Shown: one piece after another, positions 1 to 32,466 of the stretch
How the letters are laid out: each line of letters starts with the position of its first letter
How positions within the stretch are numbered: position 1 is the stretch's first letter
The notes under the pieces: generated by a model
What the model was told of the DNA's origin: nothing
Seen by the model: only the letters and a program-made list of their open reading frames with translations
Databases searched by the model: none
Position numbers and translations under genes: made by a program
NCBI GenBank assembly: GCA_965203175.1
Contig: OZ241867.1
Span: forward strand, 2,880,001-2,944,000
Length of the DNA stretch: 64,000 bases
DNA from: Candidatus Latescibacterota bacterium
GTDB lineage: Bacteria > Latescibacterota > UBA2968 > UBA8231
Direction: 5' to 3'

Positions 1-546
1 ATGATCGCCGAGGATAGCACCGAGGTGCGAGTTACCTTCGACAACGCGGTGCTGCGCTTCGGCACGACCTTTACGACGCGGGCGTTCAATTCGGGTGAGG
101 AAGTGCAGATTGCCCAAGATGTAGTATCGGGCAACGCCGCCGATCTGGGTGAAGCCGATCCGGACTTACAGCCTTTGGGTACGCCTTTCAGCGGGAACCT
201 CTCGGTGGCTGTGCCGATCGTTGGAGACCTGCTGGTCAATATAAGTGCGGTCCCCGGGGCCTTTAGCCCCAACGGGGACGGCATAAATGATCAAGCTGCG
301 GTCCAGTACGACATTACCAATATCGCTCGACCAACCGATGTAGAAATCGTCGTGCGCGACTTAGCGGGTCGGCCAGTGCGGAATCTCTACCGCGGACTCG
401 ACAGCAGCGGACGCCATGCTCGTCTTTGGGATGGCAAAAACGACGCCGGGGAGGCATTGCCCCCAGGCAACTATCTGTTCAGTGTGACGCTGGACGCTGG
501 TACTGGCCAGGAACGCGGCGTCGGCATGGTCAGCTTGGCTTATTGA
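1..546 (+). CDS. C-terminal fragment (5'-truncated by window edge) of a secreted protein with FlgD-Ig/CHU_C-like C-terminal domain
   Basis: Motifs FSPNGDGIND, RDLAGRPVR and WDGKNDAGEALPPGNY; ends VSLAY like the eight downstream paralogs. Confidence 0.75.
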   Translation: MIAEDSTEVRVTFDNAVLRFGTTFTTRAFNSGEEVQIAQDVVSGNAADLGEADPDLQPLGTPFSGNLSVAVPIVGDLLVNISAVPGAFSPNGDGINDQAAVQYDITNIARPTDVEIVVRDLAGRPVRNLYRGLDSSGRHARLWDGKNDAGEALPPGNYLFSVTLDAGTGQERGVGMVSLAY

Positions 547-552
547 GGTGCT

Positions 553-3375
553 ATGGAACGAGGGAGAGCAGTGTTGAAAGCGATGCGAAGTCTTGCAGTG
601 ATCGGTGCTTTACTTGGCTTAACTCCAGTGCATGGGCAGGAGGACTACCAGGGTCGGTTAGGGGTACAGCGCGGCGGTGCTGTCAGTTTTGAGCCTATCG
701 GCCCAGGCGTAATATTTGGCGCACTCGATCCGACGGTCAAAAAGTGGTACGTGCCGCAGGAACTCTTCGTAGACTACGGCTGGCGTCAGTGGGAGTACTC
801 CAACTACGCCCGCACCCCGTACGAGCGCTACGTCAACACTACCCGCGAGGGCGACTACTTCTACGATGTGTACGGCAATTTTACCACCCATGGTTGGCTG
901 ATCTACGACTGGCGTCAGGATCAGCCGTTGCCCTTGGGCAGCGGCATCTTCCAGGGTTCGCGTTTTAATACTTGGTTCAATGCGGTGACCATCAGCGGCG
1001 ACTCACAGGGTCAGTACAACTACGCGATCACGGTTGGCGACCGGATTCGCACGACGCTGACGCCGATGACGTTTTCCAAGCCGGACTTCAACGGGGTGCA
1101 GATCGACTTTGCCTCGGACAAGTATCAGGCGACGATCCTCGCCTCGCGCATCAGCGAGCCGATCCGCGGCTCTTCGCAGGGCATTGGCGGCAGCACCGAG
1201 CCGGTCTCCCAGACCAATACGACCTCGATGTTTGGTGGACGGGCGACGTTCCAGGTTGGCGACTTCATCACGCTGGGGGCCACACTAGTCGATGCCCGCA
1301 ACGCCAATACCACCCTTGATCTCTTCTCTGGCGACCTGATCGCCGGCAGCCTCACCGCTGGGCAGAGCACGACACCGCTGACGGCGATTGCGGTAATCCT
1401 AAGCGACGACTCGCCCGAAGACGGCGAGGGAGGTGCGGCCCTGTTCAGCCACGACGTGCGGATCACCAGCCGCGACTTCGACACCGGCAAGGAGACCGTT
1501 TCCACCTTGCAGGAGGTGGTGCGGCCCGGTTCGCAGTGGCCGGTCATCTTCGGCGGGTTCCGGCGTCCGGGCTTTTTGGCTGCGGATGGCCCAGAGCGGA
1601 TTATCGTCAACTACGACTTCAACGACCCGGCTTATATTGGTCCAGATCCGACGACCATTGTCGGAGTGGACTTCAACTACGTGGTGGCCAACGACTTCAA
1701 AGTCGAATTGTGGTCCGACCGCCAGACGGGCCAGCGGGCGGTACCAGCGGCCCCGCTGACCAGCGAAGTAATCGACAACAGCCAGCCGGCCTTTGTGGTG
1801 CTGCGGCGCGCCGAGGGCAATGTGAAGGATATCTCCAATTTGCAGCGGATCAAGTTCGATTATGGCTTGCCGACTGCCAACCTAATCGGCGGCTTTACCA
1901 TCGAGGGGGCCGATGCCTTCGGCTTTGACTTCTACGGCGAGTGGGACCGCAACAAGCGCTATGCTCAGTACCCCAACGCCGCGCTGTTCAACGAGGGGAA
2001 GAAACACGCGATCTCTTCAGAGTCATCCGACGCTTGGTACTTCAGCGCCTCGCGCGACGACTTTCCCTACTTCCTCTATGGCGAGGCCTACGCCATTGAT
2101 GAGGCTTATTCGACCACTACCTTTCTGGTCAACGCCAATGGCGATGTGCAATACGACAATAGCCAGCGGCACTTCTACGAGTTCGTCGACGACAACGACG
2201 ATCAAGATCGCTACCCCGACTGGGTTCGCTTCGGCACGATCAACGACCGGGCAATCTATCCGGGTTGGGACCAGAACAACGACTTCATCTCCGACTTCAA
2301 CCAGAACGACAATGCCACGGTAGGCAATATCACTCCCGATTACGAGGAGCCGTTCCTGCGCTACAACGTCGATCGGCCGGAGTTTCTCTTTGGCATTGAC
2401 CTCAACAACAACAACTGGATCGATCGCTTTGAGGACGATGACTTACCCGACTTTCCCTATAAACCCGATCGTCGGGGATTCAATGTCTTTGGTGGGGTGC
2501 ACCTGCTGCCGGAAGCTCGGCTGATTGTCGGTCGCACTGATGAAGAGTCGCAGACGACCGACGCGACCAACGCGACCAACTATGCGATGTTCACCTTTGA
2601 CAAGAACTACGCGGATCTGGGGCGCCTGCGGGTCTTCGATATGATCAAACAGGCCAAGGATACTATCCCCGATGCCCGCCGCGAGCCGACGCCCTTTGAG
2701 GGTGCACCGATCCAGCCCGTAGTCCGAGATATCCTCCCGGCGCAGGATACTTGGATCAACACCGCCTTTGTGCAGTTCGACTACAAGGGCATTGAGGGCT
2801 TGAACTTGGTCAATAAGCTCAAGTGGGAGACCTTCCGCCAGACCCAAGCCGAGACCCGCGACGCCAACGGTCGCCTGATGGAGGACAATTCCAGCTTTTT
2901 GGGCTTGATCAACAAGGTTGACTACACCTACGGCTTGGGACGTTTGGACTTGCAGCCGAGGTTCAAAAGCGAGCTTCTGCGCCAGACGGCTTTTCTCGTT
3001 GCAGAAGACGATCGCGAAGAATGGACGGCCACGGCGCAGTTGATAGCGACCTTGCCGGTACTGCGCCACACGATTGTGCAGGCCGGGCTAGAGCAGTTGT
3101 GGTTCAGCGACCAGAGCGTGGACGAGAACGCGCTTATTGCCGGCGGTCGCCAGCAGGAGACGGGCGACCTGAGTTCGACCAATGTGGCCGTACAGCTCTC
3201 GACCACTTCGGATTATTTGGGCTACCGGCTGACTACCCAGATTGGTCTGCGCTACGGCCGGATTTTCACCGAACAGGTGATTGAGGACAGCGAACGACCG
3301 GGTACTTTCGTGATTGGCGACGAGACCAGCAACGAGACGACCAGTTTTATTACGGTCTTCGCCGGGCTGGAGTAA
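553..3375 (+). CDS. Large secreted, probably outer-membrane beta-rich protein with Asp-rich Ca-binding-like motifs (paralog 1)
   Basis: Signal peptide (..TPVHG/QE); DDNDDQDRYPD, WDQNNDFISDFNQNDN and DLNNNNWIDRFEDDD motifs; alternating beta-strand C-terminus TSFITVFAGLE; paralog of the next gene. Confidence 0.65.
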   Translation: MERGRAVLKAMRSLAVIGALLGLTPVHGQEDYQGRLGVQRGGAVSFEPIGPGVIFGALDPTVKKWYVPQELFVDYGWRQWEYSNYARTPYERYVNTTREGDYFYDVYGNFTTHGWLIYDWRQDQPLPLGSGIFQGSRFNTWFNAVTISGDSQGQYNYAITVGDRIRTTLTPMTFSKPDFNGVQIDFASDKYQATILASRISEPIRGSSQGIGGSTEPVSQTNTTSMFGGRATFQVGDFITLGATLVDARNANTTLDLFSGDLIAGSLTAGQSTTPLTAIAVILSDDSPEDGEGGAALFSHDVRITSRDFDTGKETVSTLQEVVRPGSQWPVIFGGFRRPGFLAADGPERIIVNYDFNDPAYIGPDPTTIVGVDFNYVVANDFKVELWSDRQTGQRAVPAAPLTSEVIDNSQPAFVVLRRAEGNVKDISNLQRIKFDYGLPTANLIGGFTIEGADAFGFDFYGEWDRNKRYAQYPNAALFNEGKKHAISSESSDAWYFSASRDDFPYFLYGEAYAIDEAYSTTTFLVNANGDVQYDNSQRHFYEFVDDNDDQDRYPDWVRFGTINDRAIYPGWDQNNDFISDFNQNDNATVGNITPDYEEPFLRYNVDRPEFLFGIDLNNNNWIDRFEDDDLPDFPYKPDRRGFNVFGGVHLLPEARLIVGRTDEESQTTDATNATNYAMFTFDKNYADLGRLRVFDMIKQAKDTIPDARREPTPFEGAPIQPVVRDILPAQDTWINTAFVQFDYKGIEGLNLVNKLKWETFRQTQAETRDANGRLMEDNSSFLGLINKVDYTYGLGRLDLQPRFKSELLRQTAFLVAEDDREEWTATAQLIATLPVLRHTIVQAGLEQLWFSDQSVDENALIAGGRQQETGDLSSTNVAVQLSTTSDYLGYRLTTQIGLRYGRIFTEQVIEDSERPGTFVIGDETSNETTSFITVFAGLE

Positions 3376-3376
3376 T

Positions 3377-6355
3377 ATGAGACGGGTGCGAATAATGTCG
3401 AGGCTCACGGCGCTTTTCGCCTTCGTCCTATCCTTGGCGCTAGGCGAAGCGGAGGCCCAGGACATGGATTACGGCAATCGCCTGGGGTATCGCGTGGCCG
3501 AGCAGGTGCGCTACTCCTCGGTCGGCGCAGCGGTTGATATGGACGTGCTAGACCCGACGGTTATGCGCTGGTACATGCCGCAGGAGCTGTTCAGTGAGTA
3601 CGGGCGTCGCCAATGGAGCTACACCAACTACGCCAAAGAACCTTACCGCCGCTACCTAGACCGCAATCTCGATGGCAACTACTTCTACGACGCCTACGGG
3701 GATTTTATCACCCGCGGCTACCTCGTCTACGATTGGCGCCAGACCCAGCCGCGTGCTTTCGAAAGCAGTTCGGTCACCAAGACCGGCCGCTACGCGGGCT
3801 GGTTTGACCGCTTGATTATCACCTCAGACCAAACCAGTACTTATAGCTATTCGATCATCGTCGGTGACGAGATCCGCACCACGTTGACGCCAATGACCTT
3901 CAACAAGGTCGGCTTCAATGGCGTGGTGACCAGCTTCGCAGCGGGACGAACTCGGGCTACGGGCCTGTTTTCGCGGGTGACCCTGCCCATCGTCGATATT
4001 GACGCCGATGTCCCGACGGCCTCGTTGGAGAATTTTTCCAACTTGGCAGCTGGCCGTTTTGAACTCGACGTGGTCGACCAGGCGACCCTGGGGCTAACGT
4101 TGGTCAACGTCCACAACGGCAATGGTGCACGCGAAAGTTTTCAGGGCAACCCACTCAAAGGCCAGTTGACTTCGGGTCAACTCGACCGCCAACTGAACCT
4201 ACTGGTAGTTAGGCTTGCAGATGATTCGCCCGAAGATGGCGAAGGAGGGGCGGTGCTCTTCACTGACGACGTGGAAATTACTACTACCCTAATGCGCGAG
4301 GTCACAGTCGGCGATAGCGTACAGCTAGTAGCGCGCGATACCACCATCATCGGCAGCGGCATAGGCTTTCGCCCGGTGCGCGATGGCGGTGAGCTACGCG
4401 ACGGCTTTTTGCGCGCCGATGGCGCTGAGAGCATCGTGCTTAAGTACGTGCTGGCACCCGAGGATGAAGCCTCTGAGGAAGGCTCCCTGCGCTTGCTTTT
4501 GCAGCAGCATCTAGGGCTGACGCTGACCGAGGCCGCCGATGCGATTACCGCCATCAAAAACGTGAGATTTCGCCTAGTGCTGGCCAACGATTACCGGGTG
4601 GAGGTGTCGTCCGATCGCCAGACCAACCGCTCGGGCCAGCCTCAGTTCATCGTCATGGAGCGGGCACCGGGAAATATCAAGAACGAACTCAATCAGCGCG
4701 AGGTCGTCATCGACTACGGCCTGCCGACGGCCAGCCAGATCTTCGGGGCCAGCGCCGAGCTGCGCGACTTTTTCGGCTTCGACTTCTACGGCGAGTTCAA
4801 CGTCAGCAACCAATACCGTCAATACCCTGCGATCAACCGCAAAAAGCACGAGAGTTTCTCGGGTATCGTCGATGACGAGACCGCTCTCGGCTGGATGTTC
4901 AACTTGGCGCAGAAGTCCGGTCCGTGGCTGCTCTTTTTAGAGGGCTTCGGCATGGATGAGACGTACTCTACCAGTGTGCTGCCGGTCGATGGCCGCGGCG
5001 TGGCCGACTACTCGCCCGAGGCCACCAACCTGCTCTACGATTTCGTCGACGACAACGACGACCACGACCGGCACCCGGACCAATTGCGGATTTTTCAGGG
5101 AAGCTTGATTCCGCCGCATACGACCTCGATCAGCAACTTCACGGTGACTTCCGAGGGCGTGGCCGATCCAGCGGTTTTCCCTGGCTACGACGAGAACGGA
5201 GATTTCATCTCGGATTTCAACCAGAACAGCAACGGAGATCGGGAGAATCTTTTTCCCGACTATGAAGAGCCCTTCCTGCGCTATCACTCAGACCGGCCGG
5301 AGTTTCTTTTTGGCATTGACCTAAATAACAATGGTTGGGCCGAGCGCTTTGAAAACGACGACTTGCCCGATTATCCCTACAAAAAGGACCACTGGGGCTA
5401 CAATACCTACGCCCGAGTTCAAGTCAATCCAGAGATGCGCCTGATGGGCGGTTTCCTCTATCAGGATCAGCGCGAAACCGATCGCCGCAATGAGACGGCC
5501 TATGGAATTTTGACCTATCAGCGGGCTGGGCCTACTTGGGGTGCCTTGCGGGTCTATGACATGCTCAAAAGGGCTGAAGACACCATCCCCGACCCGCTCT
5601 CACAGTGGATTATACCCGAATTGGAGTTGGGTAGCGTCGTCGAAGAGGTCAGTGGGCGCAACGTTCCCGTACCCGACCTTTTGGCCGCCGAGGACACTTG
5701 GATCAATACGTTCTATGCCGATTGGGAATACAAGAGTCCGCGACGCTGGGCCACGCGGCACCGCTTTAAATGGGAGTGGTGGCACCAGCGCGATGCGGAT
5801 GTAGTCTTTGCTCTCGACGAGGCCGGAGAAAGGATGCTCGATGCAGAGGGGAATCCGGTGGTGCTTTTCGACCCGCTCGGTCCGGAGGCGCGCAATGGCC
5901 GTAAGACCTCGGGCTTCATTGGGCTAATCGACAAAATTGACTATGCCTTTAACTGGAAACAGCTGTGGATTTCGCCTAGGTTCAAAAGCGAATTTCTGCG
6001 CCAGGTACCATTTAACCGCGACTTGGTTGAGCGGCGCTCTTGGGACGCTTTGTGGTCGCTCTTAGTGCGTTTCCCGCTTTTGGTGAGCTCTAGTGTTGAC
6101 CTCGGCGTTGAACAGCGCCAGTTCTACAGTCTCATAGGCGACGAGGATAAACTAGGGGCAGGGGAGCGAACCGGAGATTTCAGAGGCACAGTCTTGGCTG
6201 TACAGCTGACCAACCGCAGGGATTACTTGGGCTACGAACTCACTGCTCAGCTCGGCATACGCTACGACCGACGTGCGATCGAAGTTGTCGATGGCGACGC
6301 TGAGACGCGCACGGCGGGACTGGCCTTTCTCTCGGTTTTCGCCAGTCTAAGGTAG
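3377..6355 (+). CDS. Large secreted, probably outer-membrane beta-rich protein (paralog 2)
   Basis: Start re-placed at ATG 3377 (or 3395); signal peptide ..EAEA/QD; shares LDPTVxxWYxPQELF, DDSPEDGEGGA and the D-rich blocks with 553..3375; ends LAFLSVFASLR. Confidence 0.65.
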   Translation: MRRVRIMSRLTALFAFVLSLALGEAEAQDMDYGNRLGYRVAEQVRYSSVGAAVDMDVLDPTVMRWYMPQELFSEYGRRQWSYTNYAKEPYRRYLDRNLDGNYFYDAYGDFITRGYLVYDWRQTQPRAFESSSVTKTGRYAGWFDRLIITSDQTSTYSYSIIVGDEIRTTLTPMTFNKVGFNGVVTSFAAGRTRATGLFSRVTLPIVDIDADVPTASLENFSNLAAGRFELDVVDQATLGLTLVNVHNGNGARESFQGNPLKGQLTSGQLDRQLNLLVVRLADDSPEDGEGGAVLFTDDVEITTTLMREVTVGDSVQLVARDTTIIGSGIGFRPVRDGGELRDGFLRADGAESIVLKYVLAPEDEASEEGSLRLLLQQHLGLTLTEAADAITAIKNVRFRLVLANDYRVEVSSDRQTNRSGQPQFIVMERAPGNIKNELNQREVVIDYGLPTASQIFGASAELRDFFGFDFYGEFNVSNQYRQYPAINRKKHESFSGIVDDETALGWMFNLAQKSGPWLLFLEGFGMDETYSTSVLPVDGRGVADYSPEATNLLYDFVDDNDDHDRHPDQLRIFQGSLIPPHTTSISNFTVTSEGVADPAVFPGYDENGDFISDFNQNSNGDRENLFPDYEEPFLRYHSDRPEFLFGIDLNNNGWAERFENDDLPDYPYKKDHWGYNTYARVQVNPEMRLMGGFLYQDQRETDRRNETAYGILTYQRAGPTWGALRVYDMLKRAEDTIPDPLSQWIIPELELGSVVEEVSGRNVPVPDLLAAEDTWINTFYADWEYKSPRRWATRHRFKWEWWHQRDADVVFALDEAGERMLDAEGNPVVLFDPLGPEARNGRKTSGFIGLIDKIDYAFNWKQLWISPRFKSEFLRQVPFNRDLVERRSWDALWSLLVRFPLLVSSSVDLGVEQRQFYSLIGDEDKLGAGERTGDFRGTVLAVQLTNRRDYLGYELTAQLGIRYDRRAIEVVDGDAETRTAGLAFLSVFASLR

Positions 6356-6368
6356 ATAAATCCACGAC

Positions 6369-8111
6369 ATGAGTGGTGTCTCTACTGTGCAAGGTTGGAT
6401 CATCAACCGCGGCTGCGATGCGATCTTTTTTATCGGCACGCCCCTTTTGTCGCTGGCCGCATTACTCATTGCTTCACAGTACTTCAGTTCGGCCGACATT
6501 GCTTGGTTCGTGTTGGCATTCTTTGCGGTAGGCCATCACTTACCCGGCTTCATGCGTGCCTACGGCGAAAGAGAGCTTTTCGACCGCCACAAGGCGACCT
6601 TCCTCGTCTCGCCGCTGGTGGTAACCGCCTTCGTGGCTTGGAGTGTGTTCAACGGCCATCTGGGTTTTTTCATCTTCTTGGCTCTGTGGGATCTGTGGCA
6701 TTTCTTCATGCAGCACTACGGCTTCATGAGGATCTACGATGTTAAACGCCGCAAGCCCTCCCACCTCAGTTCGCGGCTGGACTGGTGGCTGACGGCCGTT
6801 TGGTTCGGCTATATCATCATCGACAGCCCCCATTACTTGATCAATTTTCTCGAGCGCTGCCACCGCTATGGCTTCGGCCTGTACACCTGGATCACACCGG
6901 AGTTTCTCTTAGAGTTTAGAGAGTGGGTTTTCTATCTGGCTGTTGGAATAGCCGTTCTCTACGTGGTAAACATGGTCGTCGAGCGGGCGCGGGGTATACC
7001 AGTGGTTTGGCCGAAGCTGGCAATTTCGCTGACGACCTTTGCCACTGTTTATTACGCCTATATCGTCCTCGAAGATATCATCCTCGGCTACGCGATTACG
7101 GCCTTGGCCCACGACATTCAGTACTTTGCCATCGTCTGGATTTACAACCACGGGGTGCTCAAGCGCTCGCGGGAGTTGGGCGCATCCTTCTTCCGCTTCC
7201 TGTTCTCCGACGGCCGCTTCCGCATCGTGTTGTTCTACGTGATTCTGATCTTGGCCTATGGCGGAATTGAGGCCTTGGCCCGAGCGACGGACAACTACCT
7301 GATGTACGATGTGGCTAAGGTTATCATCGCCGCTTCGGCTTTTTTGCACTATTACTACGACGGTTTTATGTGGAAGGTGCGCAAAAAAGAGATCCGCCAG
7401 AATTTGGTCGACGGAGACGAGGGCGAAGCGGTCGCAGGCGACCGCAAGGGGCTGCGCGAAAGGCTACAGGAAAGCGTCGGGCGCTGGGTGGGGTTGCGCT
7501 ATGCATTCGAGACCGGGCGACAAGTGCTCTACTTCGGCGTACCCATTCTCTTTTTGGCTTGGAGCGATGCCACCTATTCGGTGTCCGATCTGGAAATGGG
7601 AGAATACATGGCGCGGATAACGCCGAATGTGGGCAAAACTCACGATGACTTGGGCAGGGCCTACGTGAAGCAAGGCCAGTACGAGCGCGCGATAGAAGAG
7701 CACCAAAAAGCGGTGGACCTGGATCCTGAATTTGCACCGGCCTATACTCATCTCGGCATTGCCTATTCGCTATCTGGCGACCCGAATCGAGCCATAGAGC
7801 TCCACCGCAAGGCCATCGACTTGGACCCAGAAATGGCCCAGGCTCATTACAATCTAGGCGTAGATTATTGGAAAATGGGCAAGCTAGTCGAGGCGGAGCG
7901 GGCTTTCAAGCGGTCAATTGAGGAGGATAGCCAGTATATTCGCGCACATCAGGCATTATCTCAAGTGTATAAAAAGCAGGGGAATAGAGCAGAGTATGTC
8001 AGAGTTTCCGCTCTAGTCCGCGACCTAGAAAAGGCCGCTCAACGCAGAGAGTTGAGCCGAAACGCTATGCCATGGGCTACGGGCACTGCACTGGCCGAGG
8101 ACACGCGCTGA
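6369..8111 (+). CDS. Polytopic membrane protein with conserved His motifs and C-terminal TPR repeats
   Basis: Many hydrophobic helices; GHHLPGF, WHFFMQHYG, AHDIQY and LHYYYDGF motifs; TPR pattern (AYTHLGIAY, AHYNLGVDY). Confidence 0.7.
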   Translation: MSGVSTVQGWIINRGCDAIFFIGTPLLSLAALLIASQYFSSADIAWFVLAFFAVGHHLPGFMRAYGERELFDRHKATFLVSPLVVTAFVAWSVFNGHLGFFIFLALWDLWHFFMQHYGFMRIYDVKRRKPSHLSSRLDWWLTAVWFGYIIIDSPHYLINFLERCHRYGFGLYTWITPEFLLEFREWVFYLAVGIAVLYVVNMVVERARGIPVVWPKLAISLTTFATVYYAYIVLEDIILGYAITALAHDIQYFAIVWIYNHGVLKRSRELGASFFRFLFSDGRFRIVLFYVILILAYGGIEALARATDNYLMYDVAKVIIAASAFLHYYYDGFMWKVRKKEIRQNLVDGDEGEAVAGDRKGLRERLQESVGRWVGLRYAFETGRQVLYFGVPILFLAWSDATYSVSDLEMGEYMARITPNVGKTHDDLGRAYVKQGQYERAIEEHQKAVDLDPEFAPAYTHLGIAYSLSGDPNRAIELHRKAIDLDPEMAQAHYNLGVDYWKMGKLVEAERAFKRSIEEDSQYIRAHQALSQVYKKQGNRAEYVRVSALVRDLEKAAQRRELSRNAMPWATGTALAEDTR

Positions 8112-8119
8112 GAAAATCA

Positions 8120-8150
8120 TTGACAAATTATCTAATCCTTTTTTTGTTAG
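8120..8150 (+). promoter_or_regulatory. Putative sigma70 promoter (TTGACA -35) upstream of 8269
   Basis: Perfect TTGACA at 8120-8125 in an AT-rich intergenic region; -10 is degenerate. Confidence 0.4.
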
Positions 8151-11234: not shown

Positions 11235-11236
11235 GG

Positions 11237-24143: not shown

Positions 24144-24144
24144 C

Positions 24145-24528
24145 ATGGCCCATGACGAAGCAGCAGCGGTAATCGCAGCAGCGAAAATCGCCACCGCCGC
24201 GTATTGCGCCGGCGATATAGACGCCTTTCTGCCGTATATCCACCCCCAACGCACTACCTTTGGACCCGACGGCAGTCGTCTGGCGGCTTTCGACGCTAAA
24301 GCGCTGCGGGCCGGCATGGCCGCAGGCCGTGTCCAGGCGCAGGTGGAATGGCGGGATCTCCAAGCCACCGTACATGGCGATGTCGCGGTCAGTACGGGGT
24401 ATCTGGTCGGCACTTGGACCATCGGCGACAGCGTCGAGGAAGGTACCTGGCGCGAAACCATCGTCTGGCTCAAGCAGGACCAGCGCTGGCAGGTTTCCCA
24501 TTTGCATGTATCCGCGTGTCTGACCTGA
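24145..24528 (+). CDS. NTF2/SnoaL-like (DUF4440-type) protein
   Basis: RBS aaggag and ATG 24145; VHGDVAV..R.T.VW.K..RWQVSHLH.S pattern. Confidence 0.7.
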   Translation: MAHDEAAAVIAAAKIATAAYCAGDIDAFLPYIHPQRTTFGPDGSRLAAFDAKALRAGMAAGRVQAQVEWRDLQATVHGDVAVSTGYLVGTWTIGDSVEEGTWRETIVWLKQDQRWQVSHLHVSACLT

Positions 24529-24561
24529 GAAGGCTGAACCAAGAAGCGAACGGAGGTCAAA

Positions 24562-25344
24562 ATGAGCGCAGAGCGGTCGTTTCATCTAGGGTATTCCACG
24601 ATCACTTGGGGCCCCACACCGGATTTGGACAAGGTGTTTGGCACCATCGCCGACGCTGGCTGGGAAGGGGTGGAGTTCATCAGCGTTTCGATGGACTGGC
24701 TGGGCACGCCCCGAAGGCTGCGCGGCTTGCTCGATCAGCACGGGTTGCCGCCGGTGTGCCTGTTCGGCAGTGTGTCGCTGGCACCCGACGCCGAACAGGT
24801 GCTCGCTCGGCAGCAGCGCATCATCGAGTACGCGGCTGAGTTGGGTTGCCCCAATTACTGCTTTCTCGGCGGCAATCGCGTGGCGCTACGCCAGCCCAAC
24901 GACGACGAGTTTAAACGCTTGGCTGAGCAGGCGGAGACCCTCATCGATTACGCCGAGCCTCTGGGGGTGAAGGTGACCTATCACGCGCATCCGCGCTGCA
25001 CGGTCGAAAGCGAAGAGGAGCAGGACAAGCTCCTCGCATACGCCGAGCGGCTGCAGATCTGCATGGACGTGTCGGTGGCGGCTTTTATGCAGGAAGACGC
25101 GGTCGCCCAGATCTTCAAATACCGCGAGCGCATCGGCTACGTGCACATGAAGGACTGGGCTCAGGGCAAGTTCTGCGTGATGGGGCAGGGCACGGTGGGG
25201 CTGGATTTCGCCGCGATTCGCACGGCGCTTGAGGAGATCGGCTATCAGGGCTGGGTAATGGGCGAGTTGTCCAGCTATGCAGACACCGACGCGGATAAAT
25301 CGTGTCGGGCCAATCGGGAATTCCTACGCTCGGTGGGTTACTGA
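24562..25344 (+). CDS. Sugar phosphate isomerase/epimerase (IolE-like TIM barrel)
   Basis: GWEGVE, YHAH, YVHMKD, G.GTVGLDF and GYQGWVMGE motifs. Confidence 0.8.
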   Translation: MSAERSFHLGYSTITWGPTPDLDKVFGTIADAGWEGVEFISVSMDWLGTPRRLRGLLDQHGLPPVCLFGSVSLAPDAEQVLARQQRIIEYAAELGCPNYCFLGGNRVALRQPNDDEFKRLAEQAETLIDYAEPLGVKVTYHAHPRCTVESEEEQDKLLAYAERLQICMDVSVAAFMQEDAVAQIFKYRERIGYVHMKDWAQGKFCVMGQGTVGLDFAAIRTALEEIGYQGWVMGELSSYADTDADKSCRANREFLRSVGY

Positions 25345-25365
25345 GCGTTATACAAGGAGCAGACA

Positions 25366-26613
25366 TTGAAAAAGATTCCACTTTGCTTGATCGGCTGCGG
25401 CGGTATGGGCCATCGCCATATCCTCGCCTACAAAGAACTGGAGAACAGCGGCATCGGCAATATCGAGCTGATGGCCGTATGCGACCTCAACCCCAAGAAC
25501 GCGGATCTGGGTCGGCGGGAAGTAGAGCGCCTCTTCGGTCGCACGCCCTTGGTCTTCACCGATCTGGGCGAGGCCGTGTCGCACCCCGACATTGCGGCGG
25601 TGGACGTGGCCACTGATCCCGCGGTCCACCACCAAGTGGCGGTGCCGGCGCTGGAGGCCGGCAAGCATGTCTTGTGCGAAAAGCCGCTGGGCATCACCAT
25701 TCGCGCCTGCACGGCGATGATTGCGGCGGCCGAAAAGAGTGGCGTGGTGCTGGCCACGGCTGAGAATTTGCGGCGCGACCCACCCAATAGATTGGCGCGC
25801 GCGATCCTCGACCACGGGCTTTTGGGCGACCCTTACCTGATGATCCACAACTGTCTAGGCGGCAACAACAAGATGGTCATCACCCCGTGGCGGCATCTCA
25901 AGGACAAAGGGGCGATCGGTCTAGATATGGCGGTGCATTTTACCGATATCGTGCAGTACTACATGGGTGCCTTCGACCAGATCTACGGCACTGGTTGGAT
26001 CATCGAGCCGGTGCGCTATAAGCCCGATGATTCCGGTCTCCAACTCGAGTCCTATGTCGAGCGGCTCAAGACCTTTCCCGATTCGATTGAAGCTACCGGC
26101 GAGGATTCGGTCTGCGCGATGTACAAGATGCAGTCCGGGGCCATGGTGCAGTTTACCTACGCGGCCGGCGGTCGCGGCAGCACCGGTTTTGAGCGCAGCG
26201 TACACGGCCGCTTGGGGGCGTTGTATGCGCCTGGGGACCGCAATGGCCGGCCGGTGGTCCTGCGCCGCGAGGGCCAACAGTTTGAGGGCGCAGAGATTTT
26301 GCCGTTATTGCCCGATTTTCAGATGAGCGAAATCACCGAGCGGCTTTTCGGCGCGAAGGTGGTGACCTACGAGCTGGACTTCCCGCCGATTGATGCCAAG
26401 CACATGGCCATCGAGATGCACGACTTCGGCGAGGCGGTCCTCAAGGGCACCAAACCCGAGGTCGATGGCCATCTGGGCATGACGGCGGTGGCGGCGATAT
26501 ACGGGGCCTATGAGTCGATCCTCGCTGGCCGGGCCGTGACTATGGATGAGATCCTCTCGGGCCAAGTGCGGGCCTACCAACAAGAGATCGACGCAGCGCT
26601 CGGGCTGGACTGA
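25366..26613 (+). CDS. Gfo/Idh/MocA family oxidoreductase
   Basis: IGCGGMG, AGKHVLCEKP and DMAVHFTD motifs; TTG start with RBS aaggag. Confidence 0.85.
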   Translation: MKKIPLCLIGCGGMGHRHILAYKELENSGIGNIELMAVCDLNPKNADLGRREVERLFGRTPLVFTDLGEAVSHPDIAAVDVATDPAVHHQVAVPALEAGKHVLCEKPLGITIRACTAMIAAAEKSGVVLATAENLRRDPPNRLARAILDHGLLGDPYLMIHNCLGGNNKMVITPWRHLKDKGAIGLDMAVHFTDIVQYYMGAFDQIYGTGWIIEPVRYKPDDSGLQLESYVERLKTFPDSIEATGEDSVCAMYKMQSGAMVQFTYAAGGRGSTGFERSVHGRLGALYAPGDRNGRPVVLRREGQQFEGAEILPLLPDFQMSEITERLFGAKVVTYELDFPPIDAKHMAIEMHDFGEAVLKGTKPEVDGHLGMTAVAAIYGAYESILAGRAVTMDEILSGQVRAYQQEIDAALGLD

Positions 26614-26647
26614 AGATTTATTATACGGGGAGCAAGGAGACGCAACC

Positions 26648-27805
26648 ATGGAGCGCAGTACTGACCGCATCTTGACTACCCACGTTGGCAGCTTGGCACG
26701 TCCTGTGGACTTGCTCGACCTGATGAAGGCCAAAGTCAACGGCAGACCCTACGACGAGGAGGTCTATGCTCGGCGAATTTCGGCTGCCGTGGCCGAGGTT
26801 GTCAGCAAGCAGGTCGAGAGCGGCATCGACATTGTCACCGATGGCGAGCAGAGTAAGCTCGGTTTCTCGACGTACGTGAGCGAGCGGTTGGCCGGTTATG
26901 AAGCGAGACCGGGTGCGATCGACTCCGCTGAATTTTCGCAGGAGGTGGCCGCTTTCCCGGAGTATTACGAGCGCTACTTTGGCGAGGCCATGCACGGGGG
27001 TGCCGTCGCCAAAATAAACCCCGTCGCGTGCATCGGCCCCGTCAGTTATAAGGGGATTGATGCCCTGAACGAGGACATTGAAAATCTCAAAGCCGCGGTC
27101 GCGGGAGTGGACAAGGTGGATGTCTTTATGCCCTCGGTGGCGCCGAGTGGGGTCGGCGGAAACGAGTATTATCCGACTGAGGAGGAGTATCTGCAGGCGG
27201 TCGGCGAGGCGATGCGCACGGAGTATAAGGCGATCGTCGATGCGGGCTTCATCGTGCAGATCGACGATCCCTGGATGACAGTGGTCCGCGGCGACGGGAG
27301 CTTGAGCCTAGACGACCGCCTGCGGAAGATCGAACTGTCCGTCGAGGTTCTCAACCACAGCTTGCGCGGTATTCCCCCCGAGCAGGTGCGGCTGCATACT
27401 TGCTACGGGATCAACGAAGGTCCGCGCATCCACGACGCGGCGCTCAAGGACATCGTGGGGATCATGCTCAAGGTGAACGCCGGTGCCTATTCGTTCGAGG
27501 CCGCCAACCCGCGGCACGAACACGAGTACCACGTCTGGGAAGACGCCAAACTGCCGGAGGGCAAGTTGATTATTCCAGGAATGGTCGCACACGCGAGCAA
27601 TATCGTCGAGCATCCCGAACTCATCTGCGAGCGCATCGTCCGCTTCGCCAACATCGTGGGACGAGAGAACGTGATCGCTGGGACCGATTGCGGCTTTTCG
27701 ACCCAGGCTACCTATACCCCAGAAGTCCATCCGACCGTGGTGTGGGCCAAGTTCCAAGCCATAGCCACCGGTGCACAGCTGGCGACGAAGCAGCTCTGGG
27801 GATGA
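26648..27805 (+). CDS. Cobalamin-independent methionine synthase II (MetE C-terminal-like) family protein
   Basis: ILTTHVGSLARP, IVTDGE, Zn ligands HTCYG..E..DCGF; start re-placed to ATG 26648 with RBS aaggag. Confidence 0.85.
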   Translation: MERSTDRILTTHVGSLARPVDLLDLMKAKVNGRPYDEEVYARRISAAVAEVVSKQVESGIDIVTDGEQSKLGFSTYVSERLAGYEARPGAIDSAEFSQEVAAFPEYYERYFGEAMHGGAVAKINPVACIGPVSYKGIDALNEDIENLKAAVAGVDKVDVFMPSVAPSGVGGNEYYPTEEEYLQAVGEAMRTEYKAIVDAGFIVQIDDPWMTVVRGDGSLSLDDRLRKIELSVEVLNHSLRGIPPEQVRLHTCYGINEGPRIHDAALKDIVGIMLKVNAGAYSFEAANPRHEHEYHVWEDAKLPEGKLIIPGMVAHASNIVEHPELICERIVRFANIVGRENVIAGTDCGFSTQATYTPEVHPTVVWAKFQAIATGAQLATKQLWG

Positions 27806-27901: not shown

Positions 27902-29848
27902 ATGTACCAACGCCTCAGAGATTCCTTAGCTGTATGGTGCGGGTTTTTGCTGTTCATTGTCGGCCCTCTCGACGCGCTGACAATCTACCGGCTCGGGGGT
28001 AGCGATTTGCCGGCTCCAGAGTTAGCGGCGCTTGAGGGGGTGGAATTCGTGCAACTAGCGTGGGCCGACGTAGCTGAAGATCGGCACGGCCAGACCGACC
28101 TAATCGAAGTAACCCCCAATCACATCGCACCGCGCCAACTCGACCCGACGGTCAACCTGACGCCGCTGTTGCCCCAGCCCGATTTCCTCGGGGATATTTT
28201 CTATCTGACTTGGATTGGCTGGGGTGGTCCCGATGTCGATGACTGGTTTATCTGGGACGAGGATCCCAATACGGTCTATCTGGGCGATGGGCACTTCGCG
28301 ATGCATGGGCCCAAACACAAAAGTCTGATTTTCGACCTCGGCGGCCTGTTTTTTCTCGAGCGAATCAAGTTCTACCCCCGCGAAAGACATCGGCACGACC
28401 GCTTCGTGGAGAGCTTTACCATTGGCATCAGTGACGGCGATCCGTTCAAAGATCCCCATCGAGAGCTACAGGCTGGAGTGGGGGGATTCGGCAGGGGGTC
28501 TGTCGTCGCCTTTGACGTGCTCTACGACATCAGGGAAAACACCGAGCCTATCATTGAGTTAGAGTTGCCAGCGCAACCTGTACAGAAGGTACTCTTTCGA
28601 GCAGCGGAGAATACGCGGGGCATCTGGGAGCTGGCCGAACTTGAACTCTACGGCGCGGGTTTTGCCCCCTTTGCTGGCTACCAAAGCAATGTCATTGATC
28701 TAGGCCGAGCGGTGTCGCTGGGCGATCTGAGCTGGTCGGGTGTGGTCGAGCCGGGTGCCCGCGTTGCCTTGACTATGCGCAGCGGCGCTACGCCGACGCC
28801 CAACATCTACTGGCGCTTCACCTTTCGCGGCGATGAGCAAAGTCGCTTCGATACCCAGGGCCGGGTGTTGACGCGCAAAGCCTATAACAAGCTCAACAAG
28901 GGCGAGCGGGCCGGGATCACGCCCGATACTCAGCAGTGGGAAGCTTGGAGCCAGGCGTACGATTTCGCGGACAGTACGGGGGCGATGCAGGCGAACCAGC
29001 CTAGGCGCTACGTGCAACTGCGCGCCGACTTTGAATCGCTCAAGGAGGCGGGCGGGCGGCTGGACTATGTACAGTTCAGCGTCTCGGACCCGCCGGTGGC
29101 CACCCAAGTGCTAGCCGAGATCTCTCCGGCGCAGGTCAAAGCGGGCGAGGTGACTTCCTTTACCTATGCGGTATTGCCTCAATTCGAAGAGGACGATTTG
29201 GGATTTGACACCATTGAGATTGAGACGCCCGTGCAGGTGAGGGAGGTTGACGCGGTGCGCATTAGCGAGATGGAGGTAGGCTTTGACGTCCTGCGCTCGG
29301 ACGCGGAGGGCTTTGCCCTGCGCATCCCGCGCATGGACTTGCAGCGCACCGAAGAACTGGTTGAGGTGGATTTTCAGGTGGAAGTGTTCAAGTTCGGCAC
29401 GATGTTCACCGGCCGGGTATCGGACAGCGAAAGGCCCTTTGAGGTGCATCAGCGGCTCACCGCAGGCGACGCCGATCCGCTAGTCGAGGGCAACACGCTG
29501 AACGTAGGTTTGGTCGAAGTGGAACACAAGGCAGCCAACGCGCTCAGACTAGCCTCGCCCGTGTTTACGCCCAATGGCGACGGAGTCAACGACGAGTTGC
29601 AGATCGAATACGAGCTGTTGAATCTCTTGGGAGCGGTACCAGTGGCATTGGATCTGTACGATTTGTCGGGCCATCGCTTGGGAGCAGTGTATCGCGGTAC
29701 AGCGCAGAGCGGCCGATTTCGCTTGGAGTGGGATGGGGTGTTGGCAAGTGGGGAACGGGCAGTGCCGGGGTGCTACTTGTTGCGCCTAGCGGTGACTAGC
29801 GACCGAGGTGGAGAAATCCTCCAGCGCGTCATCGCGCTGGCTTATTAG
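27902..29848 (+). CDS. Family A secreted protein A4
   Basis: Closest to A2 (LGDIFYLTWIGWGG); ends IALAY. Confidence 0.8.
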   Translation: MYQRLRDSLAVWCGFLLFIVGPLDALTIYRLGGSDLPAPELAALEGVEFVQLAWADVAEDRHGQTDLIEVTPNHIAPRQLDPTVNLTPLLPQPDFLGDIFYLTWIGWGGPDVDDWFIWDEDPNTVYLGDGHFAMHGPKHKSLIFDLGGLFFLERIKFYPRERHRHDRFVESFTIGISDGDPFKDPHRELQAGVGGFGRGSVVAFDVLYDIRENTEPIIELELPAQPVQKVLFRAAENTRGIWELAELELYGAGFAPFAGYQSNVIDLGRAVSLGDLSWSGVVEPGARVALTMRSGATPTPNIYWRFTFRGDEQSRFDTQGRVLTRKAYNKLNKGERAGITPDTQQWEAWSQAYDFADSTGAMQANQPRRYVQLRADFESLKEAGGRLDYVQFSVSDPPVATQVLAEISPAQVKAGEVTSFTYAVLPQFEEDDLGFDTIEIETPVQVREVDAVRISEMEVGFDVLRSDAEGFALRIPRMDLQRTEELVEVDFQVEVFKFGTMFTGRVSDSERPFEVHQRLTAGDADPLVEGNTLNVGLVEVEHKAANALRLASPVFTPNGDGVNDELQIEYELLNLLGAVPVALDLYDLSGHRLGAVYRGTAQSGRFRLEWDGVLASGERAVPGCYLLRLAVTSDRGGEILQRVIALAY

Positions 29849-29862
29849 AGGACAAGAGTGCA

Positions 29863-32466
29863 ATGAAGACCATTTGGACTTTTGCCTGCGCCTTGTTGTT
29901 GGGCGCGGTGTGCGCCAGCGCTCAAGGAAAGGGCCATCGCGTCACCGCCGACCAAGTCGTAGTCAATACTCAACAGCACTGGCAGACCTGGTCCTTCGGG
30001 ACGGGCACCCTAGACATTGGGACTGACGGTGAAGTTCGGCCACGGCGGCTGCGCAAGAATATCAATGCCGTGGAGAATGCCCGCGAATTCTTGCGCCTGA
30101 ATCCTCCCAATTACATCAAAAAAGACGCGGCCGATATTGAACTCAGCGACGGAATCCGCGCGGGCTCCAATGCGTCGGGTGTACTGGCTCTCTTTGACGG
30201 CGATATGGAGACTTATTGGGAACCTGACGCGCTCGAGTTAGGTGTCGATTTGGCGACGCAGTGGTGGTTTATCGTCGATTTGGGCCGCTTCGTCATGGCC
30301 CGCAAGATCGTGCTCAAGTTTGTCGATGAAGCACTGGGCGACCCCTTCTTGCAGTTTGATGTGCTGGTCTCGGAAGGCCGCCAACCCAAGGGCAACAGCC
30401 GTTCCGAGACACCGGAATTCAGACGCGTGGCGCGCACCTTGGTGCCCAACAAGCACCAGCGGCTCTTTGAGATCGAACTGGAGTACGCAGAAGAGTTTGC
30501 GGGCATGGGTCTGCGCTTCGTGCAGGTGCTCGTGACCGGCAGCGACTTTGCCCAAGGGCGGGAGATCAGCCGCGACGAGTACGAGGCCCTGTTAGAGGCA
30601 GACCGGGGGGCAATCCTCTATCACAAGCTGCTGCCGAACGGCAATGAGGCCGCGGTCAAAAAGGAGGTCTATGACCGACTCGAAGCGTCGCGGCAAGGTT
30701 CCGTGCGCTATTTTGTGCGCGAAAGGCCGCGCTTGGCCGAGTTGGAAGTGTGGGCCGAAGGCGACGAGATCCTGATCAATACGGTCGAGCGCGGGGGCAT
30801 GGTCACCTCGACCCAATCGCTGGCGCTGGCGAGCCTGTTCGACGGCAATGTGCTCAGCTTCAGCGAGGTAATTTTCATCTTCTCTCCCGGGCAATTAAAG
30901 TCACCAGAGGGCGAGGTGTTTTTCGATATGGGAGCCTCGTTCTGGATCGACGCCTTCCGTATGGCTCTGGGAGCGCGCCAGCGCAATTTTGAGGGTTATA
31001 GACTGGATTTCTCCAATGGTGAGCGCGAGGCAGACGGCAGCCTCAAGTGGACTTCTGCGGCCGCAGTGAGTGGTGCGGAAGTCCTCGGTGCCGGCACGAT
31101 TGGTACCCAAAGCGTAATGGGCAACGACTTTAGCCCCCTAAGGGCGCGTTTTTTCCGCTTCGTGTGGAATCAGATTGTGCGCGGGGTGGGCAATAGCGGT
31201 GCGGCCATTTTGGCTGATCCGTCCGAGTTGCAGCTCTACGGGGAAGGGTTTATGTCGGAGGTAAGCCTGACTTCGGATCTGGTGCGGCTGGGCGGCAGCC
31301 GCAATTTGGTCTCGCTCGAATGGGACGCGGATGTGCCGCCGGGCACGAGTGTGCTGGTGCAAACGCGCACTGGCAACGAACTAGCCGAGAACCTGCGCTA
31401 TTTCAAAAAAGACGGCACTGAAGTGAGCAAAGACCAGTACGATAAGCTGCTCTCGATATTCAAGGGGGATATTATAGCCGAGGAAGTAGTGGGCGGAGAT
31501 TGGAGCGACTGGAGCCAGCCGGGCGAAGATCCCAGCGGCAGCCCGATTGCTTCGCCGTCGCCGCGCGAGTTCCTAGAGATCCGAGCAACCCTGTTGTCGG
31601 ACGCTCCTGCAGTGAGCGCGACCTTGCGTTCGATCCGGCTCAATTTTACGCATCCGGTGGCGCAGAGCCTGACGGGAGAGGTGGCACCGGCGGTGGTAGA
31701 GACGCTGGGGGAAGAGCAGCGCTTTTCGCTTTTTGTGCGGCCGAACTTCGCCCCCCGAGATCCCGGCTTTGACGAGTTCTTGCTGGTGGCTCCGGCGGAC
31801 ATGAGGCTTGGGTTCGACGGTCTGTATGCTGGTGCGGGCGAGGTGTTGGCCAGCCGCGATCTGGACGGGTTGGCGGTGGCTGATGTCGAGGTTGTGGCGA
31901 CGAGCGGCGACAGCCTGCGCTTGGCTTTTCCGCTAATCGGTCCGGAGTCAGGGGTGGAGGTGTTGCGGCTGGACTTTACCACGGCACTGTTTGCGGCCGG
32001 AGCGGTGCTGCAGGCGTCGCTGCAGAACAGCACTTCGGAGGAATGGGATTGGCAGCGGGTGGACCCGGGCGACGCAGTAGGGGCAGTGATCAGTAACACC
32101 ACGACCTTGAGGGGCGCATTGCAGAGCCGATCCTTGTTGGAGGACGTGGTGATACCGGAGGTCTTCACTCCCAATGGGGATGGGGTCAACGACCAAGTGT
32201 CGTTCCATTTCAAGGTGATCAAGGTAGGCGACGACAGTCCGGTGGAGGTGCTGATCTACGATTTGAGCGGTCGGCTAGTGGGGCAGTTGGTCGAGCAGCG
32301 CGAGGTGAGTACAGGAGAGTACGGAGTTGTGTGGGATGGTCGGGATGAGTCGGGGGCGGTGGTCGCACCGGGAGTGTATGTGGTGCGTCTGCGGGTAGAT
32401 ACTGATACCCAAGGGGCGCGCGTCGGGGCCGGGGAGGTCTTGTATACTATTGCCGTAGCCTACTGA
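29863..32466 (+). CDS. Family B secreted protein B4
   Basis: Family B scaffold with divergent loops; FTPNGDGVND; ends IAVAY. Confidence 0.8.
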   Translation: MKTIWTFACALLLGAVCASAQGKGHRVTADQVVVNTQQHWQTWSFGTGTLDIGTDGEVRPRRLRKNINAVENAREFLRLNPPNYIKKDAADIELSDGIRAGSNASGVLALFDGDMETYWEPDALELGVDLATQWWFIVDLGRFVMARKIVLKFVDEALGDPFLQFDVLVSEGRQPKGNSRSETPEFRRVARTLVPNKHQRLFEIELEYAEEFAGMGLRFVQVLVTGSDFAQGREISRDEYEALLEADRGAILYHKLLPNGNEAAVKKEVYDRLEASRQGSVRYFVRERPRLAELEVWAEGDEILINTVERGGMVTSTQSLALASLFDGNVLSFSEVIFIFSPGQLKSPEGEVFFDMGASFWIDAFRMALGARQRNFEGYRLDFSNGEREADGSLKWTSAAAVSGAEVLGAGTIGTQSVMGNDFSPLRARFFRFVWNQIVRGVGNSGAAILADPSELQLYGEGFMSEVSLTSDLVRLGGSRNLVSLEWDADVPPGTSVLVQTRTGNELAENLRYFKKDGTEVSKDQYDKLLSIFKGDIIAEEVVGGDWSDWSQPGEDPSGSPIASPSPREFLEIRATLLSDAPAVSATLRSIRLNFTHPVAQSLTGEVAPAVVETLGEEQRFSLFVRPNFAPRDPGFDEFLLVAPADMRLGFDGLYAGAGEVLASRDLDGLAVADVEVVATSGDSLRLAFPLIGPESGVEVLRLDFTTALFAAGAVLQASLQNSTSEEWDWQRVDPGDAVGAVISNTTTLRGALQSRSLLEDVVIPEVFTPNGDGVNDQVSFHFKVIKVGDDSPVEVLIYDLSGRLVGQLVEQREVSTGEYGVVWDGRDESGAVVAPGVYVVRLRVDTDTQGARVGAGEVLYTIAVAY

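Follow-up and report, generated by a model that had tools for sequence, protein, structure and literature searches.

Does the gene run that opens the 64,000-nucleotide stretch analyzed here (Candidatus Latescibacterota bacterium, GenBank assembly GCA_965203175.1, contig OZ241867.1, positions 2,880,001 to 2,944,000; hereafter the window) encode a surface display system in its own right, or does it belong to the T9SS (type IX secretion system)? The first-pass annotation of the window had described an analogous but distinct module, in which two large paralogous proteins (family L) would export or anchor a repertoire of lectin-like proteins (families A and B) through a shared C-terminal domain (CTD). 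According to two accounts of the T9SS in the Bacteroidota (PMC9143113, PMC12618676), cargo with a type-B CTD binds and needs a cognate, adjacently encoded PorP/SprF-like barrel, whereas type-A cargo goes via PorV and PorU instead. We favor, at a probability of roughly 0.55, the reading that the T9SS underlies a cell-surface module which is specific to the lineage and has been massively amplified, the locus being one of its copies. With the same slight lean beyond even odds, we propose that A and B are T9SS cargo handed to dedicated L barrels, which would stand in for PorP/SprF, and that together they form glycan-capture modules resembling polysaccharide utilization loci (PULs).

A distinct class of Tyr-ended CTDs

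Nine proteins of the window, X0, A1 to A4 and B1 to B4, all encoded on the + strand within positions 1–32,466 (Table 1), end in a tag of ~95 aa with the pattern FTPNGDGxND…YDLxGR…WDGxD…PPGxY…(A/T)Y. An HMM (hidden Markov model) made from these nine CTDs, with one iteration, was run on the genome and identified 249 open reading frames (ORFs) with a terminal CTD. Tyr is the last residue of all 169 CTDs that belong to A and B proteins (AY in 110, VY in 50, IY in five, SY in three and TY in one) and of none of the other 80, which end in L/V/I followed by K/R/E and similar residues. The domain envelope reaches the last residue in 169/169 A/B proteins. Both ends of the domain differ between the two groups, as is evident from the consensus VFTPNGDGVND…VAVAY for A/B and NYPNPFN…LLLR for the others; their cores are homologous (hhalign, 99.5%).

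We compared the CTDs with four families at their curated cut-offs, 23 bits for TIGR04183 (type A), 35 for TIGR04131 (type B) and 27 each for FlgD_ig (PF13860) and CHU_C (PF13585). None of the nine window CTDs reaches the type-A cut-off (seven score 17–21.5 bits), compared with 17 of 18 other CTDs drawn at random from the same genome. The type-B model is matched from its position 3–6 by eight of the nine, at 17.2–30.8 bits, and its cut-off is reached by none; neither the remaining window CTD nor any of the 18 random CTDs matched TIGR04131. Scores ranged from 20.8 to 40.6 bits for FlgD_ig, with six of nine over the cut-off and thus members of that family, and from 21 to 35.3 bits for CHU_C (four of nine over). 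A family-A profile matches FlgD (3osv) at E 1.3e-9, and the A1 CTD superposes on that of PorU (6za2_B, Z 12.1). The A/B tag lies below both curated cut-offs, starts with a motif like that of type B and invariably ends in Tyr. It is thus a class of its own, similar to type B and conforming to neither curated definition, in line with the distinct module of the first-pass annotation. At one locus of another genome without an L or A match (L102, G004:C47:12301-15528), a CTD has the type-A NPFN motif and yet ends in -MY, and terminal Tyr is therefore sporadically found outside the A/B class.

L proteins are predicted outer membrane barrels

The two large proteins, L1 and L2, are paralogs (39.6% identity) with N-terminal signal-peptide-like sequences, as judged by eye. 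The AlphaFold2 model of L1 (mean predicted local distance difference test score, pLDDT, of 68) is a large beta-barrel of roughly 24–30 strands, counted from the DSSP string, and all 50 of the structural matches listed for it are outer membrane barrels. These include SlpA (7zgx; Z 14.0, root-mean-square deviation, rmsd, of 9.4 Å over 382 aa), MtrB (Z 11.4), PapC (Z 11.4), FhaC (Z 10.6) and, by Foldseek, LptD. The fold matches are generic, with TM-scores of 0.13–0.25 and rmsd of 6–10 Å, and with TM-scores this low no specific barrel family is therefore implied. We rejected the possibility that L is a TonB-dependent transporter, as it has no plug domain; its fold matches to such transporters, at Z 9–10, are among those to generic barrels.

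Sequence comparisons set L apart from described families. Neither L1 nor L2 matched a Pfam or NCBIfam family at E ≤ 0.01, no relevant Pfam match emerged for any of 35 L-family members when the threshold was relaxed to E ≤ 1, and no sequence relative was found in the PDB. The nearest Pfam-bearing ESM Atlas cluster carries DUF6029 at 0.89, which is below the level of more than a lead. A search of 1.84 billion proteins with an L profile returned 937 representative clusters at E ≤ 0.001, of which 336 were found at E ≤ 1e-30; homologs of L and B carry the source label 'hypothetical protein' and come mostly from organisms assigned to the Latescibacterota or 'Gemmatimonadetes'. Judged from these searches, L is a real, lineage-restricted family.

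Two segments of the L1 model have low confidence, the N-terminal ~140 residues and residues 538–635. The latter segment is rich in Asp and Asn (e.g., DDNDDQD and DLNNNGWIDRFEDDD in the family consensus) and presumably resembles Ca-binding loops; it would lie on the extracellular side if hairpins of the model are counted back from the C-terminus. Across 60 paralogs the most conserved part of L is residues 540–640 (0.52–0.68) and the least conserved is the C-terminal half of the barrel. Residues ~30–160 of L1 (window ~640–1030) are also highly conserved and include numerous invariant Trp, Tyr and Pro residues, at an AlphaFold2 pLDDT of 24–58; the N-terminal ~130 mature residues may serve as a plug or bind a partner. 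A complex prediction for L1 (residues 40–940) with the X0 CTD (residues 85–181), made with no controls run, returned a score of 0.00 and 'no answer', and speaks neither for nor against an interaction.

Amplification of the locus and linkage of A/B to L

The window proteins were searched by tblastn against their own genome, a single contig of 6.58 Mb, which revealed 62 paralogs of L, 99 of A, 71 of B and 34 of S, the exported protein encoded between L2 and A1. These paralogs form 64 clusters that together take up 722 kb (11.0%) of the genome, with recurring gene orders such as S-A-B-A-L-L, A-A-B-L and B-L-…-A-A-L-S; 39 of the clusters contain L. The nine genes of the window are thus no special repertoire but belong to one of 64 such clusters.

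An A or B gene lies within 8 kb of every one of the 62 L genes. Directly upstream of L there is an A or B gene in 43 cases (23 A, 20 B), another L in 13 and neither in six. X0 represents an L-adjacent subtype of family A whose nearest paralogs are all directly upstream of L1-type barrels. We also inspected related loci in other genomes, represented by the best 78 of at least 642 matches; these are the closest relatives of L1, and many are orthologous and not independent. Within this set a gene with a Tyr-ended (Y-type) CTD ends ≤450 nt upstream of L in 65 of the 67 loci whose upstream DNA was long enough, and the A/B tags end in Tyr in 187/187 cases. The window genome also has distant L-like barrels, in clusters such as B-L-L-L (6502758–6521925).

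To describe the spread of the module we sampled 81 genomes of the phylum, with thresholds of E ≤ 1e-20 for L and E ≤ 1e-30 for A; the sampled genomes are kin, so that the counts describe a pattern of presence and absence and are not a statistical test. L was matched in 44 genomes, A in 32 and SprA, the T9SS translocon, in 76. Both L and A were found in 31 genomes, neither in 36, L without A in 13 and A without L in one, and two whole families of the same class lack both (0/24 and 0/6). SprA is present in 30 of the 31 genomes that have L and A. The distribution of the CTD class is similar: a Y-type CTD profile gave nothing above 58 bits in five high-quality genomes without L and A, while a genome of another family that has both yielded four full-length matches (67–83 bits). 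Ten loci from genomes without L and A contained 11 CTD ORFs, of which 10 are type-A-like with a K/R end and one combines NPFN with -MY. Based on synteny and co-occurrence, we rejected a chance grouping of T9SS cargo, and the families do occur together in other genomes, as the first-pass annotation would have it.

The genome encodes type IX secretion components

The earlier statement that no canonical T9SS gene is recognizable in the window is correct if taken literally. A PorU gene (632 bits) nevertheless starts 14.7 kb past the window end, and SprA (618 bits) is encoded elsewhere in the genome, both scoring over their cut-offs. Directly after PorU is a PorV-like gene with 147 bits, below the cut-off of 250; the pair is located at genome positions 2958744–2963097, 14.7–19 kb past the end of the window. 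Another PorV-like match, weaker than the first (271532–272002), overlaps with an ORF that at its C-terminus resembles the C-terminal part of PorZ (42 bits). The genome further encodes ~80 ordinary type-A cargo proteins, typically ending in K or R, and has at least 150 FlgD_ig matches. No PorP/SprF (TIGR03519) was found in the genome, the best match being 21 bits on the PorV-like gene. As in type-B cargo, the A/B tag is at the extreme C-terminus of proteins with signal peptides (judged by eye), in a genome with SprA and PorU.

These findings divide the proposal of an analogous but distinct module into a part that stands and a part that does not. Its distinctness is upheld by a CTD class of its own, by tight linkage to a barrel and by the lack of a PorP/SprF match. 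Its independence from the T9SS is not, given SprA, PorU, the PorV-like gene, the ~80 type-A cargo proteins and the homology of the CTDs, and it is further undercut by the presence of SprA in nearly all sampled genomes with both L and A.

Lectin-type heads of the A and B proteins

The AlphaFold2 model of A1 has a mean pLDDT of 90. Its head (residues ~75–248) is a jelly roll of the CBM32 or F5/8-type-C fold, with 4a42_B as a match at Z 13.6 and rmsd 2.4 Å over 123 of 126 residues, and supports the earlier description of A as lectin-like. CBM32 entries follow by the dozens at Z 10–13, many of them galactose- or GalNAc-binding modules, and the SusE-like BT2857 is among the matches (Z 10.2). The identification came from the domain-level search, since a whole-chain Foldseek search of A1 gave low-TM, multi-domain matches. 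Family A also has several immunoglobulin (Ig)-like domains, with matches to Eph ectodomains, to complement macroglobulin (MG) domains and to an archaeal S-layer. Across 89 paralogs of A, conservation is lowest in the head (0.24) and highest in the CTD (0.40).

At the sequence level, the family-A profile matches CBM32 chains at E 0.0025–0.003, and PF00754 is matched in the B proteins only, at 20.2–26.1 bits and thus below the 28.2 cut-off; precomputed tables place PF00754 on some B homologs. The C-terminal ~430 aa are common to A and B, at 27% identity (E 2e-42).

The S protein may be related to CBM9. Its nearest ESM Atlas clusters (0.93–0.97) carry CBM9_1 on 13%, 37% and 94% of their members. 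The window copy has no match in Pfam or NCBIfam and no sequence relative in the PDB, and none of 15 S members matches Pfam CBM9_1 at E ≤ 0.1. Terminator-like hairpins bracket S (window 8005–9338). In four metatranscriptome runs on sponge or marine samples, from three studies, contigs cover window 1–20,000 at 90–99% identity, and the contig depth over S is ~5–30 times that of neighboring genes in three of four assemblies, although contigs cannot rank genes; nor can they prove transcription, and we did not use them as evidence of expression.

Proposed route and its resemblance to known systems

We propose that A and B, which consist of a signal peptide, a CBM32-type lectin head, beta-sandwich spacers and the CTD, would reach the periplasm via Sec and then cross the outer membrane through the SprA translocon, guided by the CTD. 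Being of a distinct, type-B-like class, the Tyr-ended CTD would not be passed to the PorV/PorU route and would keep A and B apart from the ~80 type-A cargo proteins that take it. The L barrels encoded just downstream would then receive and hold A and B, as PorP/SprF do for the type-B cargo of Bacteroidota. The variable lectin heads, the CBM9-like S and the L barrel may together constitute a glycan-capture, and possibly an uptake, unit loosely similar to SusC/D PULs, to which each locus would add its own parvulin chaperone, polytopic inner membrane protein, FG-GAP/ASPIC proteins and sugar-catabolic enzymes.

The closest precedents are the pairs of type-B cargo and PorP/SprF barrels, SprB-SprF and PG1035-PorP. 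The A/B signal is likewise a C-terminal beta-sandwich with a TPNGDG-type start, the A/B cargo gene is directly upstream of an outer membrane barrel gene, the genome has the T9SS translocon and, by analogy, the fate of A and B would be separate from that of PorV/PorU type-A cargo. Unlike type-B CTDs, the A/B CTDs are below the TIGR04131 cut-off (17–31 vs. 35 bits) and have an invariant Tyr end. L differs from PorP/SprF in its length (~950 aa), its roughly 24–30 strands, the absence of any sequence relation and its conserved acidic, Asp/Asn-rich loop. The scale also differs. Flavobacterium johnsoniae is reported to have 12 type-B substrates (PMC12618676), compared with ~170 cargoes and 62 barrels in the genome studied here. 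In addition, the A/B CTDs lack the locus-specific signature of the F. johnsoniae CTD/shuttle pairs, and L, A and B are hosted by the phylum Latescibacterota, in loci with PUL-like content, unlike the type-B systems of the Bacteroidota. With respect to type-A cargo (Por_Secre_tail/FlgD_ig), the A/B CTD has the same fold and is homologous, but differs in its TIGR04183 result (0/9 vs. 17/18 over the cut-off), in having TPNGDGxND rather than NPFN and in ending with Tyr rather than K/R. The tag and L module therefore follows the logic of type-B cargo and barrel with a different tag, an unrelated barrel about three times larger and a huge amplification.

The PULs of Bacteroidota comprise SusC/SusD together with SusE/F-like surface glycan-binding proteins, in many paralogous loci. 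The A/B/L loci resemble them in their dozens of paralogous copies, in the combination of an outer membrane barrel with surface carbohydrate-binding proteins (identified here by fold) and in the catabolic enzymes and transporters that they contain. Unlike SusC/SusD, L, a putative route of uptake, has no Plug or TonB-dependent-receptor domain and is not accompanied by SusD; and unlike PUL binders, A and B carry T9SS-type CTDs and not lipoprotein signals.

Points against the proposed route, and rival explanations

Several observations weigh against A and B being T9SS cargo held by L for glycan capture. The coupling of CTD to L is a proposal from gene linkage and the type-B precedent. L shows no detectable kinship in sequence with PorP/SprF, with PorV or with any Pfam or NCBIfam family, and it is ~3 times as large as PorP/SprF and PorV. 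The two most conserved stretches of L1 (~60–120 and 540–640) are almost wholly at pLDDT <50. Twenty-five of the 64 clusters have A/B genes without any L. No locus-specific CTD 'address' was detected, the identity of A and B CTDs being 0.350 within clusters and 0.352 between them (permutation p ~0.52); A/B CTDs thus show no cognate address of the kind that F. johnsoniae CTD/shuttle pairs have, which suggests that an A/B CTD interface, if it exists, is generic rather than cognate. Among the 13 genomes with L and without A, 12 belong to a single family (f9) and have distant L matches: these genomes (e.g., G006, G012 and G027) encode L-like barrels at E 1e-26 to 1e-53 and no family-A match at E ≤ 1e-30, and the Y-type CTD gave one match each in two of three f9 genomes tested. 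One genome (G015, 96% complete) with weak L and A matches had no SprA match. The GldL/GldM models TIGR03513, TIGR03517 and PF12081 had no match in the window genome, although the two TIGR models matched no control genome and PF12081 matched one control, below its cut-off, so that absence of GldL/GldM is not implied. For GldK only generic FGE-sulfatase matches were found (up to 84 bits vs. the cut-off of 350). Glycan binding by the A/B heads is presumed from their fold, with F5/8-type-C sequence matches below the cut-off, and the connection of S to CBM9 is an embedding lead without Pfam confirmation. Lastly, the genome has ~31 matches over the Plug cut-off (TonB-dependent receptors), away from L, and L is therefore not needed to explain uptake.

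These points bear differently on the other explanations that we considered. If L were itself the translocator, usher-like or TpsB-like, with the parvulin as chaperone and the Tyr-ended CTD targeting L, the T9SS would be uninvolved. Such autonomous export would accommodate a CTD class distinct from type A, the parvulin gene in 34 of the 39 L-containing clusters and the lack of detectable GldL, GldM and PorP/SprF in the genome (the GldL and GldM searches being without a positive control). L does match usher and TpsB barrels (PapC, FhaC), about equally to others, but its barrel matches are all generic. Moreover, the CTD is homologous to the type-A CTDs of the genome and to the CTD of PorU, A and B occur in 25 clusters that have no L, and SprA, PorU and the PorV-like gene are present, with SprA accompanying L and A in 30 of 31 genomes. 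We consider autonomous export improbable on these grounds. We give equally little credence to the idea that L and A/B are merely co-regulated, with A and B being surface or released T9SS proteins and L an independent channel or porin of the same regulon. That idea accounts for CTDs that are not matched to their own cluster, for A/B clusters without L, for the f9 genomes with distant L-like barrels and few Y-type CTDs, and for catabolic and transporter genes inside the clusters; it leaves unexplained why A and B have a separate CTD class confined to where L and A occur, and why A/B genes strictly precede L with gaps of 1–10 nt.

The assembly could also be as proposed but serve as a variable adhesin or surface coat, for attachment to, or recognition by, the sponge host or particles, rather than for nutrient capture. 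The window sequence is present in sponge metagenomes and close relatives are present in sponge metatranscriptome assemblies; the multiple Ig-like domains of A, with the matches given above, and the great diversity of heads between paralogs would suit such a role. Yet related loci seem to come from non-sponge sources as well, as judged by record titles (e.g., isolate 'Baikal-deep'), CBM32 folds typically bind glycans, and the clusters include genes for sulfatases and sugar-acid dehydratases, for ABC sugar transporters and for a polytopic inner membrane protein, and we regard a purely adhesive function as unlikely. More plausible than any of these, though still doubtful, is an extension of our proposal in which L would be a T9SS-linked partner with a dual role, anchoring Tyr-ended cargo via its acidic loop and acting as a SusC-like channel without a plug. 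Amplified T9SS cargo held by dedicated L barrels remains the explanation that we prefer.

Organization of the locus and its neighbors

The coordinates of the window features are listed in Table 1. As read from the ORF listing and translations, the co-directional + strand genes of the run are separated by gaps of 1–160 nt, and the order A, A, B, B, B, A, four enzymes, A, B agrees with that given by the first-pass annotation, as do the nine tagged genes and the two large signal-peptide-bearing paralogs, of which L1 is modeled as a barrel. X0 is truncated by the window; its open frame is 783 aa, with a start 5′ of the window, and it scores 40.4 bits for FlgD_ig and 32.1 for CHU_C.

Table 1. Features of the run and its flank, in window coordinates
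Feature	Position	Strand	Description
X0	1–546	+	C-terminal 181 aa of L-adjacent family-A protein; Y-type CTD, end -AY
L1	553–3375	+	940 aa; outer membrane beta-barrel (AlphaFold2 model), unnamed family; signal peptide
L2	3377–6355	+	992 aa; L1 paralog; start 1 nt past L1 stop
T	6369–8111	+	Membrane protein, at least 4 hydrophobic segments; TPR repeats at C-terminus
S	8269–9195	+	308 aa; exported, possibly CBM9-like
Hairpin	9228–9266	+	Terminator-like, 18-pair stem, just 3′ of S; consensus scan only
A1	9309–11234	+	Family A; signal peptide, CBM32-fold head (~75–248), beta-sandwich domains, Y-type CTD (545–641)
A2	11237–13177	+	Family A; end -AY
B1	13181–15781	+	Family B, 866 aa; F5/8-type-C matched weakly around residue 110; CTD end -TY
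B2	15792–18404	+	Family B; end -AY
B3	18414–21020	+	Family B; end -AY
A3	21049–23010	+	Family A; end -AY; FlgD_ig 40.6, CHU_C 35.3
Four enzymes	23175–27805	+	SDR, xylose-isomerase-like TIM barrel (IolE-like), GFO/IDH/MocA oxidoreductase, MetE-like protein
A4	27902–29848	+	Family A; end -AY
B4	29863–32466	+	Family B; end -AY
FG-GAP gene	32469–34058	+	Flank; family recurs at A/B/L clusters
FGE-sulfatase-like gene	34052–34891	-	Flank; family recurs at A/B/L clusters
FG-GAP/ASPIC gene	34895–36580	-	Flank; family recurs at A/B/L clusters
GT87 gene	36569–37891	+	Flank; family recurs at A/B/L clusters
FG-GAP/ASPIC gene	37846–39657	+	Flank; family recurs at A/B/L clusters

Families that accompany the module were found by clustering the genes around the 39 L-containing clusters. 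FG-GAP/ASPIC-UnbV proteins (69 genes) occur at 34 of these clusters, as does a parvulin peptidyl-prolyl isomerase of ~570 aa with one N-terminal hydrophobic segment (36 genes). A protein with DUF6785 and DUF6784 and at least nine hydrophobic segments (25 genes) occurs at 21 of the 39, and a 282-aa family without known kin (16 genes), lipoprotein-like by eye in the one member read, at 14 clusters. The clusters further contain PhyH dioxygenases, sulfatases, a GDSL hydrolase, MR_MLE dehydratases and components of ABC sugar transporters. Gene T has only three copies in the genome, yet is kept in orthologous loci. Proteins of ~260–300 aa with an FGE-sulfatase domain, the domain family to which GldK/PorK also belong, are frequent at the edges of A/B/L clusters (e.g., 6504842–6505327, 5761785–5762300 and window 34052–34891).

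Beyond the run, a 610-aa ORF without a Pfam family (window 39420–41252) has an FG-GAP/ASPIC gene on one side and an ABC sugar-transporter operon (41367–44854) on the other. The stretch at 48000–51100, which has a GC content of 0.475 compared with ~0.60 elsewhere and spans unannotated ORFs and a weak IS1-transposase match (49910–51028), is probably a small mobile insertion; a PIN-domain gene is located nearby (45280–45732).

Implications for the Latescibacterota

A full-text literature search, supplements aside, gave no paper that describes the pairing of the tag with L, in keeping with the earlier suggestion that the system is undescribed. The same literature contained no paper joining Latescibacter* with T9SS, 'type IX secretion' or FlgD, and none naming DUF6785/DUF6784, and the titles and abstract openings of Latescibacter* papers on PULs or sponge symbionts point to none of these families. 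The account of the Latescibacterota by Youssef et al. (2015; PMC4454575) invokes non-specific porins in its passages on the outer membrane, secretion and TonB.

The L, A, B and S proteins all carry the source label 'hypothetical', and their clusters span about a tenth of the genome. T9SS studies are, to our knowledge, almost entirely from the Bacteroidota. A third class of CTD, one that ends in Tyr and has a very different and far larger barrel as its partner, in another phylum of the FCB (Fibrobacteres, Chlorobi and Bacteroidetes) group would widen the rules of sorting after translocation. Should L have the dual role that we raise above as doubtful, the Latescibacterota would have independently evolved an equivalent of PULs in which surface lectins are mounted by the T9SS and not by lipoprotein export, and such a system would fill 11% of this genome. 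We believe that the module of this sponge-associated bacterium probably serves to display binders and to capture glycans in a manner specific to the phylum. If the loci do capture glycans, they would supply the counterpart of PULs that has been missing from a phylum which is widespread and uncultured and has sponge symbionts among its members, and they could serve to read substrate preferences from metagenomes.

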